Source of the DNA: a virus
Reading direction: 5' to 3' (one strand)
DNA: 64,000 nucleotides
Virus record (IMG/VR): IMGVR_UViG_3300027091_000001
Location: 3,711-67,710 of that record
The translations under genes and the position numbers were made by a program. Each line of letters starts with the position of its first letter. Position 1 is the first letter of the stretch. A model generated the notes under the pieces. It was not told the DNA's origin. It made no database searches and worked only from the letters and a program-made list of their open reading frames with translations. Positions 3,591-39,384 of this stretch are shown here, piece after piece.

Positions 3591-3610
3591 AAATATATTT
3601 GAAAAAGTAC

Positions 3611-3655
3611 TTGACAACTAAGTAAAGAGTGAACTATACTCTATTCAGTCAAGTT
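3611..3655 (+). promoter_or_regulatory. island promoter (TCAAGTT class)
   Basis: TTGACA-18-TATACT-8-TCAAGTT. Confidence 0.85.
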
Positions 3656-3860
3656 ACTTGATAGGCTGAAATGCCAAACTCCACCAGCGTGACCCGGTGG
3701 TATGCGAGCCCGAGCGAGATAGGGCAAATGAACTCGCTGTCGTAGGGATAGTAAAAAGTATTCTAAATAGAGTCACTTACCAAATGTATGGGAATAGGCT
3801 GGGAAGTAGGACATACACGAAGTGTCCAGCCGTGAAATAGCCCTGATGGTAAGTGAATAA
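3645..3860 (+). ncRNA. putative structured ncRNA carrying family 2 motif copy a (3773..3856)
   Basis: Promoter, no RBS/ORF; stems ttcagtc/ggctgaa, ccacc/ggtgg, agcgag/ctcgct, tcacttacca/tggtaagtga. Confidence 0.65.
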
Positions 3861-3889
3861 TGTTTTACTAAAAATAGTTCACAAAGTAC

Positions 3890-3933
3890 TTGACAAGTGC
3901 GTAAACAGTAACCTATACTCTGTACAACAAGTT
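3890..3933 (+). promoter_or_regulatory. island promoter (CAAGTT class)
   Basis: TTGACA-18-TATACT then CAAGTTGGAAGGAGG. Confidence 0.85.
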
Positions 3934-4258: not shown

Positions 4259-4297
4259 GAAGCCCCACGTTATCTCCTCAACGTGGGGCTTCTTTTA
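4259..4297. terminator. strong hairpin/terminator at Mom-like gene end
   Basis: gaagccccacgtt-atctcctc-aacgtggggcttc followed by tttt. Confidence 0.75.
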
Positions 4298-5278
4298 TTC
4301 ACCACGAACTGAAGGATATGGATACGCCTTATTCGCCTCTAGGAACCTCGTACGGAGGCGTTTTGTCTCAACCTTGGACTTACCTAGCACATAGGCATAC
4401 TTATGTTTCTTTGGAGCCGACACTGGAGTTGCGATTGACTGCTTTTGGCGAGACAGGGCACGAAGGCTACTCTCAATGGATGACGGCACTCGAGTCCAGT
4501 CGATACAGCCATCATGAATCCAGTTGTCATCCCACTTGATTCCAATTTCACGGGCATAGAGTCTGTACGCTGACTTCTGTCTGAAGAACCTGTCTGACAC
4601 TATCTTCCCGGTGTAAGGATTGATGTACCTCGTAGATGCTCCAAACCGATTACCAAGGTAGTAGAAGTTACAGGCTTGATAAATCGTGCCTAACTCTTTA
4701 GCGGCAGGGTCGGAATAAGCGGTGAACAGCCTGAACTCGGTGTTGGTGACCATGTCTCGGATGCACCACATCATCATCCGGCTGGCTAGGCACTTTGGTG
4801 ACCACGACACACACGCTCCTCGGCTGATGAGACGCTCAATCCGTGTGTCATCCCCAAGCATCTTAGACATAGCGTTCGGGAGATTCATCAAAATCACCCC
4901 CGCAAGGATATGCCGCCCAAACAACCCCTGACTAGGGTCGAAGTAGTACGCCCCATACCAGTGCGTCGTGTACTGAGAGATTGTCCCAAGCCACTCATGC
5001 CTCTTGATGAACTCAATCGCCTGTTCCTTCTCCTCATCAGTCCGCATTAGCCTGAACGTAAAGTCGCTAACAGCCATTGCCGCTATGATTTCAGGCTTGA
5101 TGCCAGACAAGGCTATGTCTTCAGTAAGATTGTTGTGTCTGATGTCGTATTGCCAGCAGTGAGGCTTGTCGTAAGAGCGGAGCGATGCTTCATCTAAGTC
5201 CGAATTCACAACAAGGATAGGCTCATTACTGACGGCACACTGAGGGATGTCAAAGAGTGGGAGTTGGATGTTGCTCAT
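4295..5278 (-). CDS. Mom-like GNAT-fold DNA base-modification protein
   Basis: IERLISRGAC...FTAYSDPAAKELGTIYQACNFYYLG and C-terminal KKHKYAYVLG resemble the Mu Mom family signature (xxYxD...GxIYQAxNFxYxG). Confidence 0.7.
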   Translation of the reverse strand: MSNIQLPLFDIPQCAVSNEPILVVNSDLDEASLRSYDKPHCWQYDIRHNNLTEDIALSGIKPEIIAAMAVSDFTFRLMRTDEEKEQAIEFIKRHEWLGTISQYTTHWYGAYYFDPSQGLFGRHILAGVILMNLPNAMSKMLGDDTRIERLISRGACVSWSPKCLASRMMMWCIRDMVTNTEFRLFTAYSDPAAKELGTIYQACNFYYLGNRFGASTRYINPYTGKIVSDRFFRQKSAYRLYAREIGIKWDDNWIHDGCIDWTRVPSSIESSLRALSRQKQSIATPVSAPKKHKYAYVLGKSKVETKRLRTRFLEANKAYPYPSVRGE

Positions 5279-5280
5279 AT

Positions 5281-5306
5281 AAAGAAAAACCCCGCATGAA
5301 GCGGGG
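5281..5306 (-). terminator. intrinsic terminator directly upstream of Mom-like start codon
   Basis: minus strand ccccgc-ttcat-gcgggg-tttttcttt then atATG. Confidence 0.7.
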
Positions 5307-5332
5307 TACGGAAAACACTCCGTTAGAGAAGA

Positions 5333-5698
5333 CTAGTCATCATTCTGGAGCCAAACCCAAGGCAAGTCAATACGATTCTTCATGTAATCGAGGTCGTAGT
5401 CATCAGGCTTAGACTCAAAGAATTCAAGAATGCCGCCATAGTGCAATAGGCAAGCCCCGCACAGTGCTGTTACATCCTCGCCAAGGAAGACGTTGCATCC
5501 TTGACAACGAGAGTCGTACACGCCAGCGGTGTTTAGTGCCTTTGCAATTGCGTCGTCAACAACTCCGCTACAGTCCAACTCCACGTCGTACAACTCGTAA
5601 ACCTCGGCTTTTTGAGCCCGAGTCATGTACATTGTTGCGAGAGCAAGCGAAAATCCATGTTGCCGCTCTTCATATAAAATGTCTTCATCTGTAATCAT
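5333..5698 (-). CDS. hypothetical protein with CxxC..CxxC
   Basis: 121-aa ORF, AGGAG RBS; CQGC and CGAC motifs. Confidence 0.7.
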   Translation of the reverse strand: MITDEDILYEERQHGFSLALATMYMTRAQKAEVYELYDVELDCSGVVDDAIAKALNTAGVYDSRCQGCNVFLGEDVTALCGACLLHYGGILEFFESKPDDYDLDYMKNRIDLPWVWLQNDD

Positions 5699-5704
5699 TG
5701 GAAT

Positions 5705-6000
5705 CTCCTATGGTGGGAAGTATGGCTGGCTGGATTTCAACCAGTACGGAACACAAGGGCAGTTCTTTCGATGGTCTCTACCTCCGATGGTACTCGTGTC
5801 TCGTGAGAGAGCATCGTACCCAACCTACACTTCTTACTTGGATAGATTGTCGGATTTGCGTCAATCATCTCCAAGGTTTCAGTAAAAGATTGTGGATTGA
5901 ACCACTCCAAGGTTGCTACCCTTATTTGAATCTCACAATAGATTCTAGCCGTTGTGGTCTTTTACTGGAGCAGGGATGCCTCCCTACATCAAAGTCGTAC
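5705..6000 (-). ncRNA. putative structured non-coding RNA / long leader
   Basis: Minus-strand stems cagtaaaaga/tcttttactg enclosing three hairpins incl. gtgg-ttcaat-ccac; cttgga/tccaag; ctgg-ttgaaat-ccag; no credible ORF. Confidence 0.5.
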
Positions 6001-6004
6001 TAGG

Positions 6005-6247
6005 TGACTGAGTTGAACCCCTTGGGGTAACTCAGTCGCTCCAGTCGTAAGCCCGATTGCTTACACTTTCGGCTTCGGGGTGGCGTGGAATCGAACCTAA
6101 CCGCATTCAGTCAACAAGCATTGTCAATCGGCTGGAGCCAGCGATTCAGACTGAATAAACCTTCACCTTACTAAGCCCAAGGGTACAGGAGACATTGTTC
6201 CAGCCTCTCAACCCGTGCGATTGAAACAGGAGTGTTATCTCAACCAC
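6005..6247 (-). ncRNA. putative structured ncRNA, family 1 copy b (tRNA-elbow-like)
   Basis: Starts GTGGTTGAGA 6 nt after -10; contains GGTTCGATTCC and GCAATCGGGC hairpin shared with 3371 copy. Confidence 0.7.
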
Positions 6248-6253
6248 AACAAG

Positions 6254-6282
6254 AGTATCGCACACAAAATTATCATTGTCAA
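6254..6282 (-). promoter_or_regulatory. sigma70-type promoter of ncRNA 1b
   Basis: TTGACA-17-GATACT. Confidence 0.8.
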
Positions 6283-6327
6283 TAGTATATGTTTAAAATA
6301 TATACACTATTATTATTTACAGAACAC

Positions 6328-6371
6328 TTGACAACAGTGTAAATGTGAGTCTATACTCTTTACATCAAGTT
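6328..6371 (+). promoter_or_regulatory. island promoter (TCAAGTT class)
   Basis: TTGACA-18-TATACT-7-TCAAGTT then GAAGAGG. Confidence 0.85.
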
Positions 6372-6388
6372 TGAAGAGGTAGAAACAA

Positions 6389-6649
6389 ATGAAGGCACTT
6401 ACAGCATCAGAGCAGTTCCTGCTCACAACCTTCTCCGGTTGGGGTTACACGTCAGATGACGTTCATGCGTCGTATTGCAGAATCCTGTCAACGACAACTT
6501 TCACCAAAGAGGACTGCATCCGTATGCAACAACTCCTCAATGTCCTTGAAGTATTCAAACTCGAGGAAGCCCGTGAAATCGAGGAGCGTGAAAACGCTCT
6601 TGCCTCTGAAGAAGGCACATATGTCTGGGATAGAGGGTTCGCAAAGTAA
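6389..6649 (+). CDS. hypothetical protein
   Basis: 86-aa ORF after promoter and RBS. Confidence 0.75.
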   Translation: MKALTASEQFLLTTFSGWGYTSDDVHASYCRILSTTTFTKEDCIRMQQLLNVLEVFKLEEAREIEERENALASEEGTYVWDRGFAK

Positions 6650-7143: not shown

Positions 7144-7189
7144 TTGACATAGAGTATATCGTTGCCTATACTCTATTCAGTCAAGTTCG
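7144..7189 (+). promoter_or_regulatory. island promoter (TCAAGTT class)
   Basis: TTGACA-17-TATACT-8-TCAAGTTCG. Confidence 0.85.
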
Positions 7190-38905: not shown

Positions 38906-39112
38906 TTAGACAACTCCGTGTTGCACACAGACCCAGTCTGTAGCAACGATGTCCTTGTACGTTAGCATCATCGTTCGCTTTGTACTGTCACTGTGATTCT
39001 CCAGAATGAATTCATCAGCAACGATATAACAAATGGCTTTCAACCCCCACCCTTGGCGATATATACCCTTGCCGCTTTTGTTTGCACTCTTAAATGCCTG
39101 ACTGAATTTCAC
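38906..39112 (-). CDS. DUF2829 / Tad2-like protein
   Basis: MKFSQAFK...GKGIYRQGW...DIVATDW matches the MxFxxA...G..xxRxGW...DxLAxDW pattern. Confidence 0.7.
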   Translation of the reverse strand: MKFSQAFKSANKSGKGIYRQGWGLKAICYIVADEFILENHSDSTKRTMMLTYKDIVATDWVCVQHGVV

Positions 39113-39384
39113 TTGCCTTGTAGTAGCCTTGTTGCATACTTGAATATGCTAGGATTAAGCATCTTCTTGTTTGCAACCTCCTTCTGAGAACGAGCGTACA
39201 TCTCAGATGCAATTTGCATTGACGACTGAATGCTTTTACGCAATTCCCGGACGTTATCGATATCGTCCATATGGAAGTCTTCCGCTATCATCGCTGACTC
39301 CAGCCGATTGACAATATTAATCGTCTCTAAGCAATATTCAAGTGCTACCCTTGTAGTACTGTTCACTGTATTCTTTTCTCTCAC
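39109..39384 (-). CDS. hypothetical helical protein
   Basis: Likely GTG start 39384 after GGAGG; promoter TTGACA-18-TAGGAT at 39479..39450. Confidence 0.65.
   Translation of the reverse strand: MREKNTVNSTTRVALEYCLETINIVNRLESAMIAEDFHMDDIDNVRELRKSIQSSMQIASEMYARSQKEVANKKMLNPSIFKYATRLLQGK

Follow-up and report, generated by a model that had tools for sequence, protein, structure and literature searches.

A large structured RNA family with a tRNA-shaped domain in uncultured freshwater phages, with one copy lying between a promoter and a CxxC-protein/Mom-like gene pair

We analyzed a 64,000-nt stretch of viral DNA (the window; positions 3,711 to 67,710 of IMG/VR record IMGVR_UViG_3300027091_000001). 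The phage is a tailed one, with HK97-type capsid, portal, large terminase and tape-measure genes, and it also encodes ThyX, an MT-A70 methyltransferase and two Tad2-like proteins. The Tad2-like (Thoeris anti-defence 2) frames are found at 38927-39109 on the minus strand and, outside the window, at G000:C1:1241-1432. The locus described here lies on the minus strand and contains the following features, listed in the direction of transcription:

6254-6282, minus strand: sigma-70-like promoter, TTGACA-17-GATACT with a TG extension (10 of 12 matches)
6005-6247, minus strand: ncRNA 1b, an upstream RNA module of a different family, placed by alignment
5970-5987, minus strand: P0, the 5' hairpin GUAGGGA-GGCA-UCCCUGC of the family RNA (fold, alignment and covariation of the P0 columns)
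5880-5967, minus strand: domain B, a four-way junction (fold and covariation)
5837-5875, minus strand: hairpin C, with the conserved loop UGACGCAAACA
5716-5834, minus strand: domain D, a tRNA-shaped four-way junction (fold and covariation, helices 9-16)
5705-5708, minus strand: Shine-Dalgarno sequence GGAG, starting 7 nt past the end of domain D
5333-5698, minus strand: gene for a 121-aa protein with CxxC...CxxC motifs and no Pfam match
5289-5307, minus strand: intrinsic-terminator-like hairpin with a T-run, the first terminator-like site past the promoter at 6282
4295-5278, minus strand: Mom-like gene (PF25680, E 1.7e-10)

The promoter at 6282-6254 is conserved in loci L033, L034, L036 and L044 and represents the only promoter-like site upstream of the unit formed by the RNA and the CxxC ORF. 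About 550 nt downstream of it on the minus strand are without a credible ORF, and we found no promoter-like or terminator-like site from 6254 to 5307. In most other phages, an intrinsic terminator occupies the position held by the GGAG in the window. On the plus strand, 3591-3647, 3870-3926, 6308-6364 and 7144-7172 each hold a near-identical promoter (ACTTGACA...TATACTCT) flanked by conserved sequence, and one of the four stands back-to-back with the minus-strand promoter at 6282. The upstream module, ncRNA 1b, sits between the promoter and the family RNA. BLAST detected it in 10 of ~140 loci, close relatives of the window phage only, and a like restriction to close relatives (at most 10 of ~140 loci) applies to the hairpin family found in the RNA island next to it. 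An exact 24-mer of copy 1b had no match in IMG/VR. A 26-nt stretch of ncRNA 1b (ccagccgattgacaat..., window 6120-6145) recurs with 96% identity at about 39290-39315 (G000:C1:43000-43025), apparently in coding DNA on the other side of the genome, and this recurrence could be due to chance.

A word-index protein search returned nine homologues of the 121-aa ORF with 55-85% identity; a peptide-pattern search of IMG/VR had no match. In all homologous loci (L033-L047), the Mom-like gene comes directly after the ORF. In phage Mu, the zinc-finger translational activator Com is encoded before mom; because no Pfam family matched the 121-aa protein, its resemblance to Com is an analogy of position only. 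The whole 6290-5699 stretch is present in four relatives (L033, L034, L036, L037), with an identity of 76-84%. L041-43 are devoid of ncRNA 1b and have a diverged version of 5990-5716 (~65% identity) directly between promoter and ORF, with compensatory changes in all stems of the L041 copy.

By comparison with its homologues, the window segment 5990-5716 (minus strand) is one copy of a structured RNA family of ~275 nt. The RNA is built from four parts: the 5' hairpin, a four-way junction, a conserved-loop hairpin and a tRNA-shaped four-way junction, with P0, domain B and hairpin C making up its 5' half and domain D its 3' half. In other phages, P0 begins a few bases past a -10 box TAATAT; the corresponding box in the window copy reads TAGTAC. 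Domain B is formed by four helices on the minus strand:

5967-5959 with 5888-5880: P1, extended by a 10th, A-U pair in the window copy
5945-5940 with 5933-5928: P2
5924-5920 with 5912-5908: P3, with the near-invariant loop GUAGCAA
5905-5902 with 5895-5892: P4

Compensatory changes affect three to five pairs in each of P1, P2 and P4. The domain B junction reads CCA(G/C)AACGGCUAG. Its AACGGC and AG do not vary, in part because our retrieval pattern (see below) demanded both; the conservation of the junction CCAGAACGGCUAG is also in part due to that pattern. By eye, a kissing contact may form between the loops of P2 (UUGC) and P3 (GCAA), both of which are nearly invariant. Mutual information among unpaired columns revealed no convincing pseudoknot, most of the signal coming from the two alleles of hairpin C. 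Across the family, the stem of this hairpin occurs as two fully compensated alleles, and its loop has a 5-nt insertion in the window copy. Domain D is closed by a helix of 12-13 bp, represented in the window copy by 13 bp and one bulged A. The D-arm position is taken by P6 and P6a, and the anticodon-arm position by P7 and P8, whose 15-nt loop is invariant and includes CCAUCGAAAGAA. Between these helices and P9 (CUGG-UUGAAAU-CCAG) lies a variable region, in which L041, L059 and L072 have an optional extra hairpin. P9 is invariant and T-arm-like, and stacks on the closing helix one base away. Of the 80 consensus pairs, 74 are formed in the window copy, and the remaining ones map mostly to the outer closing helix, where the register is shifted by one bulged A.

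We assessed these stems by folding and by covariation. The 97-nt piece 5972-5876 alone folds into a 10-bp stem enclosing gaatct/agattc, aagg/cctt and gtgg/ccac (z -3.06; 0/200 shuffles as good). The hairpin at 5875-5837 is similarly distinct from its shuffles (z -4.15; 0/200), and the last domain, 5838-5712, reaches a z of -2.06 (6/200). For the whole 549 nt, the z value is -4.11 on the minus strand versus -2.32 on the plus strand. RNAalifold predicted 65 pairs from 16 sequences, 26 of them with compensatory changes. A larger alignment (A2) comprises 63 representatives less than 96% identical to each other and has a consensus of 80 pairs in 16 helices. Here, 96.3% of the cells form the pair (32-45% in slid controls), 41 of the 80 pairs are changed on both sides (7-16 in the controls) and 359 cells are changed on both sides (23-53 in the controls), values that none of 500 shuffles reached in any of the three cases. 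Because G-U pairs are frequent in the alignment, the minus strand must be the one encoding the RNA. In addition, ~80 columns are invariant among the 63 diverged copies, which together with the 41 compensated pairs argues for purifying selection on structure. A covariance model (R1), trained on the 63 copies with the window copy included, finds exactly one copy in the window phage genome, at 5711-6005 with 286 bits. The comparative data together confirm that the predicted stems of the window stretch are real, far beyond chance.

A first-pass annotation of the window, made from the sequence alone, had proposed a structured non-coding RNA on the minus strand in this segment, and folding, covariation and G-U pairs agree with this proposal. 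The stems it named are all present at their minus-strand positions, and they covary among homologues. Two of its pairings have to be revised. The element gtgg-TTCAAT-ccac, which it regarded as T-arm-like, is replaced by gtaacc-GCAA-ggttac in L041, and we consequently retain it as a hairpin with a variable loop rather than as a T-loop. The pairing of cgatg with catcg competes with P6 and P7, both of which covary, and does not recur in relatives, where the sequence is CUAUG. As for the cloverleaf-like character suggested for the domains, the last one (D) indeed has a tRNA-like layout and is no tRNA, but the loops of the first one (B) are not tRNA-like. The annotation further regarded the segment as additional domains downstream of ncRNA 1b and suggested that both could form one ~550-nt RNA or a processed series, the latter being a plausible idea. 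Continuity holds, as no terminator-like or promoter-like site separates the promoter at 6282-6254 from the ORF at 5698. The family itself is separate and self-contained, however, being found in ~130 other loci that have no copy 1b and mostly have their own promoter and terminator. Comparative evidence thus identifies the window RNA as a separate, widespread RNA gene, apparently captured into this transcript, and not as extra domains of 1b.

Many uncultured freshwater phages carry the family. Our retrieval pattern combined two strings that are conserved in the first junction (AACGGCNAG ... CAAANANGGGTNGCAACC) and recovered 20 IMG/VR contigs, ranging from 6 to 358 kb, as well as more than 119 metagenome contigs among the matches listed. 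In the GTDB species genomes it identified only L068 (DORI01000184.1, 4326 bp), a contig of a Crocinitomicaceae MAG. As R1 found no copy in 100 other Crocinitomicaceae genomes, L068 is probably a mis-binned phage fragment rather than evidence for the host. BLAST located the segment common to the window and the retrieved contigs at 5976-5717, and not in 1b. The domain D string CCATCGAAAGAAC is present downstream of the motif in 127 of the 132 loci with enough flank, at a distance of 171-184 nt in 120 loci and of 285-288 nt in seven insertion variants, which have ~110 nt between hairpin C and domain D. Copies with the ~110-nt insertion include L055:7747-8159, L063:6114-6529, L142, L174 and L185. 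A 5' half without domain D exists in L044, L050, L089 and L091, and in L051 domain D has been swapped for another domain; the 3' module of the family RNA hence appears to be exchangeable. Searching with the domain D pattern alone returned no D-only copies: 17 of 19 matches were full-length members and the other two were chance matches in GC-rich coding DNA. The replacement domain of L051 (L051:4235-4350, minus strand) is closed by GUAGUAGUAG/CUACUAC and contains a T-loop-like string, GGUUCGAGG. The RNA is absent from the Mom-adjacent IMG/VR loci L003-L030. A tailed phage of 70 kb and contigs of 300-358 kb carry versions of it that share 80-88% nucleotide identity. A search of five records with the RNA (two of 300-358 kb) for the large terminase of the window phage had no match, a weak negative since these records are incomplete.

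We compared the surroundings of the RNA in the different contigs. Elsewhere, P0 is preceded at a distance of a few bases by a -35/-10 pair, usually of the form TTGCAT or TTGACA, 17 nt, TAATAT. A simple scan located a promoter-like site directly upstream of the RNA in 111 of 131 loci and, by the same kind of scan, a terminator within ~100 nt of the RNA in 88 of 109; varied genes then follow. The window and its near relatives have TAGTAC as -10 box and no terminator after the RNA. In L110 and L082, genes for tRNA-Leu(UAA) and then tRNA-Lys(UUU) are found on the same strand, 14 nt past the RNA. There is no terminator between the RNA and the tRNAs in either case (L110:2521-2985, plus strand; L082:876-1340, minus strand), and the RNA heads the tRNA cluster. 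Within 3 kb of the RNA, most genes are small ORFs that belong to no known family. The three most frequent neighbours are a 106-aa membrane-like protein downstream of the RNA (54 loci), a divergent 122-aa ORF (51 loci) and a 150-aa phrog_1987 protein upstream of the RNA (50 loci). Also present within ~3 kb are a Tad2-like gene (40 loci) and a Dam-like methyltransferase (6 loci); HTH and TPR proteins occur near the RNA in fewer loci than the Tad2-like gene. The CxxC and Mom-like genes follow the RNA in only ~12 of ~140 loci, and in none of the 20 from IMG/VR.

We propose that the family RNA is a processed, trans-acting RNA with a tRNA-mimicking domain, which in the window has been captured into a composite transcript, and we assign this reading a probability of about 0.55. 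Most phages provide the RNA with its own strong promoter and terminator, which argues that the gene product is the RNA as such, working in trans. In the lineage of the window, the RNA gene would have lost its own -10 box and its terminator. As there is no promoter-like site from 6254 to 5700 and no terminator, the RNA would here be made from the promoter at 6282, together with 1b and the mRNA for the CxxC protein. We infer that the three are co-transcribed, forming one long transcript with ncRNA 1b in front, followed by the family RNA and then by the CxxC-protein mRNA; the Mom-like gene would lie beyond the terminator-like site that follows the CxxC ORF. RNAs of the phage T4 tRNA cluster are cut out by host RNA-processing nucleases, and by analogy such nucleases probably release the family RNA from the long transcript. 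We count the tRNA-cluster arrangement in L110 and L082 as a precedent for processing. Our guess is that a conserved factor of host or phage, one whose usual ligand is tRNA, is bound by the conserved loops together with the tRNA-shaped domain, in which case the RNA would serve host takeover or counter-defence. Counter-defence would fit with the location of the RNA among early accessory genes (Tad2-like, Mom-like, Dam-like), but the link to anti-defence genes is loose, as most neighbours are the small ORFs mentioned above. We regard a specific mimic or counter-defence role as tentative and rather doubtful. Similarly doubtful is a scenario in which the family is a dedicated tRNA mimic, whose invariant loops and tRNA-shaped domain capture a host tRNA-recognizing factor (candidates would be a defence nuclease that cleaves tRNA, a translation factor or a processing enzyme), and which in the window phage is fused with the transcript of a Mom-like anti-restriction enzyme. 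If it were true, a single early promoter would deliver both an RNA-based and a DNA-modification-based counter-defence.

Alternatively, the RNA could be a cis-acting leader of the CxxC-protein/Mom-like operon, functioning as a riboswitch-like sensor, in translational control or as a 5' stabilizer, and it would then time the expression of a DNA-modifying enzyme. In the window and in L033, L034, L036, L041-43 and L099, the RNA indeed ends 7-20 nt before the CxxC ribosome binding site, with no terminator in between. Mom expression in phage Mu is tightly controlled post-transcriptionally by the small zinc-finger protein Com, so that a regulated leader would be in character for Mom. The window group and the L041 group, two lineages that have diverged, both place the RNA right before the CxxC/Mom genes, and a cis role is for this reason possible in these two groups. 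As an account of the family, however, we consider a leader unlikely, and we rejected assignment to the cis-regulatory leaders or riboswitches, given the ~12 of ~140 loci with CxxC/Mom genes and the separate terminator in 88 of 109. About 80% of the members have a terminator of their own, and none of the 20 IMG/VR loci then carries CxxC/Mom. Moreover, CxxC/Mom pairs exist without the RNA: in L038-40 it is absent and only 182-290 nt lie between divergent genes, and in L044-47 the ORF is located 23 nt behind another gene. In L044, 1b and the RNA's first half are located elsewhere in the genome. Finally, we found no conserved pairing with the Shine-Dalgarno sequence, and a single long-range pairing seen in the minimum free energy structure is not kept in L033/L034.

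Another type of cis action is known from the put RNAs of phage HK022, which act on RNA polymerase and confer terminator resistance. A comparable role for the family, in rendering early transcription resistant to the terminator that follows, would be in line with the position of the RNA, always directly after a strong early-type promoter and usually followed by a terminator and then by same-strand genes. Yet many of the downstream genes have a promoter-like site of their own just past the terminator, the family RNA is four times the size of a put RNA and similar to no Rfam family, and the window copy is not followed by any terminator, all of which makes a put-like action very unlikely. A row of decayed tRNA genes, or a non-functional spacer with leftover hairpins, might be suspected from the tRNA-like layout of the last domain and from the tRNA clusters that related phages have a few kb away. 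The ~80 invariant columns and 41 compensated pairs in 63 copies contradict decay, neither ARAGORN nor the Rfam tRNA model has a match, and we hold this explanation to be highly improbable. The first-pass annotation had also pointed to a plus-strand frame as a possible competitor of the RNA:

5698-6003, plus strand: open frame of 101 codons antisense to the RNA, not conserved and not a gene

The frame is open in the window, but it is broken in most homologues, with a median longest stop-free stretch of 50 of ~100 codons among 67 representatives, and a frameshift would be needed already in the closest relative, L033. As the substitutions preserve base pairs and not codons, the chance that a real gene is encoded here and that the RNA structure is incidental is close to negligible.

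Large, highly conserved structured RNAs without a known function are rare and have repeatedly been a source of new biochemistry. The present family offers well over a hundred natural variants, strong covariation, a two-domain design and a tRNA-like module. It also amounts to a natural experiment, in which the same RNA occurs as a free gene, at the head of a tRNA cluster or in mid-transcript before a Mom-like operon, and thanks to these three arrangements its processing can be tested directly, as can any cis effect. Ready-made truncations for dissecting function exist in the copies with only the 5' half and in the one whose 3' domain has been swapped. To this, the window contributes the fused arrangement, with the natural truncations and swaps, the link to tRNA clusters and the family-wide counts.

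We compared the family RNA to known structured RNAs. With Rfam 15, nothing in the window stretch reached a gathering score and there was no match inside 5700-6000 at E<=10; six stand-alone copies likewise had no Rfam match at E<=1. The tRNA model RF00005 had no match at E<=10 between 3000 and 6500, while true tRNAs in related loci score 36-74 bits, and ARAGORN reported 0 tRNA or tmRNA genes in the window. A blastn search with 5650-6400 against 50,697 deposited phage genomes had no match, and a literature search for the invariant motifs retrieved chance matches only. By these searches, the family is absent from Rfam and from the deposited phage genomes searched. No Rfam 15 family, including riboswitches, ribozymes, ROOL, GOLLD, Y RNA, 6S and others, came near a threshold score. 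A tmRNA was dismissed as there is no ARAGORN or Rfam match and no tag reading frame, and a tRNA because the closing helix has 12-13 bp instead of 7, P9 has 4 bp instead of 5 and the loop UUGAAAU, and the P8 loop has 15 nt. Domain D nevertheless follows the helix order of tRNA, a 7-nt U-x-x-x-A loop occupies the T-arm position and stacks on the closing helix as in tRNA and tmRNA, and the optional hairpin of some members is placed where tRNAs have their variable arm. In contrast to tRNA, the T-arm-like loop has G or A in place of C56. Domain D is also without a CCA end, and an invariant 15-nt loop replaces the anticodon loop. It thus cannot be a decoding tRNA, and its T-loop base, 4-pair stem and 12-13-pair closing helix limit the mimicry to topology. 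Bacterial Y RNAs (YrlA) are tRNA mimics bound by Rsr/Ro60 and are sometimes phage-borne. They share with our family a non-coding nature and the combination of a long closing stem with a tRNA-like module. Unlike a Y RNA, however, the family RNA has no Rfam match, is much larger and contains an extra four-way junction, and we found no TROVE/Ro60 gene in the genome of the window phage. Candidate structured RNAs from IMG/VR, tRNA-like ones included, are described in Fremin et al. 2023 (PMC10690425); with lengths of 29-151 nt, they are shorter than the ~275-nt family RNA.

The resemblance is closer to rnaD (species 2, 119 nt) and rnaC (species 1, 139 nt), which are arranged in tandem at the end of the phage T4 tRNA cluster. 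These, too, are phage genes of the stable-RNA type with no assigned function, and the total length is ~260-280 nt in both cases. In both, a multi-stem first part is followed by a cloverleaf-like second part with a T-arm beside its 3' strand, and co-transcription with tRNAs is possible (T4 annotation; L110 and L082 in our family). The initial hairpin of rnaD has a 7-nt loop, GUCGCUA, that resembles the P3 loop GUAGCAA/GUCGCAA. At L195:2633-2667 (minus strand), the rnaD hairpin CCGGG-UCGCUA-CCGG resembles P3, with a covariance model score of only 6.7 bits, and may be a chance similarity. The end of rnaD, CAGAAACGGCG, is similar to the family J1/2 string CAGAACGGCGAG, the order relative to the hairpin being different. 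The T4 RNAs are two separate molecules, whereas the halves of the family RNA are joined by a short linker, and the rnaC T-loop is the canonical UUCGAAU, where the family has UUGAAAU. Run with filters off on the T4 rnaC/rnaD locus, R1 found no full-length match, the best being a local one of 6.7 bits over P3-P4 (model positions 90-124), and we therefore consider the two systems analogous and not demonstrably homologous. In kind, T4 rnaD and rnaC are by this comparison the closest analogue of the family RNA.
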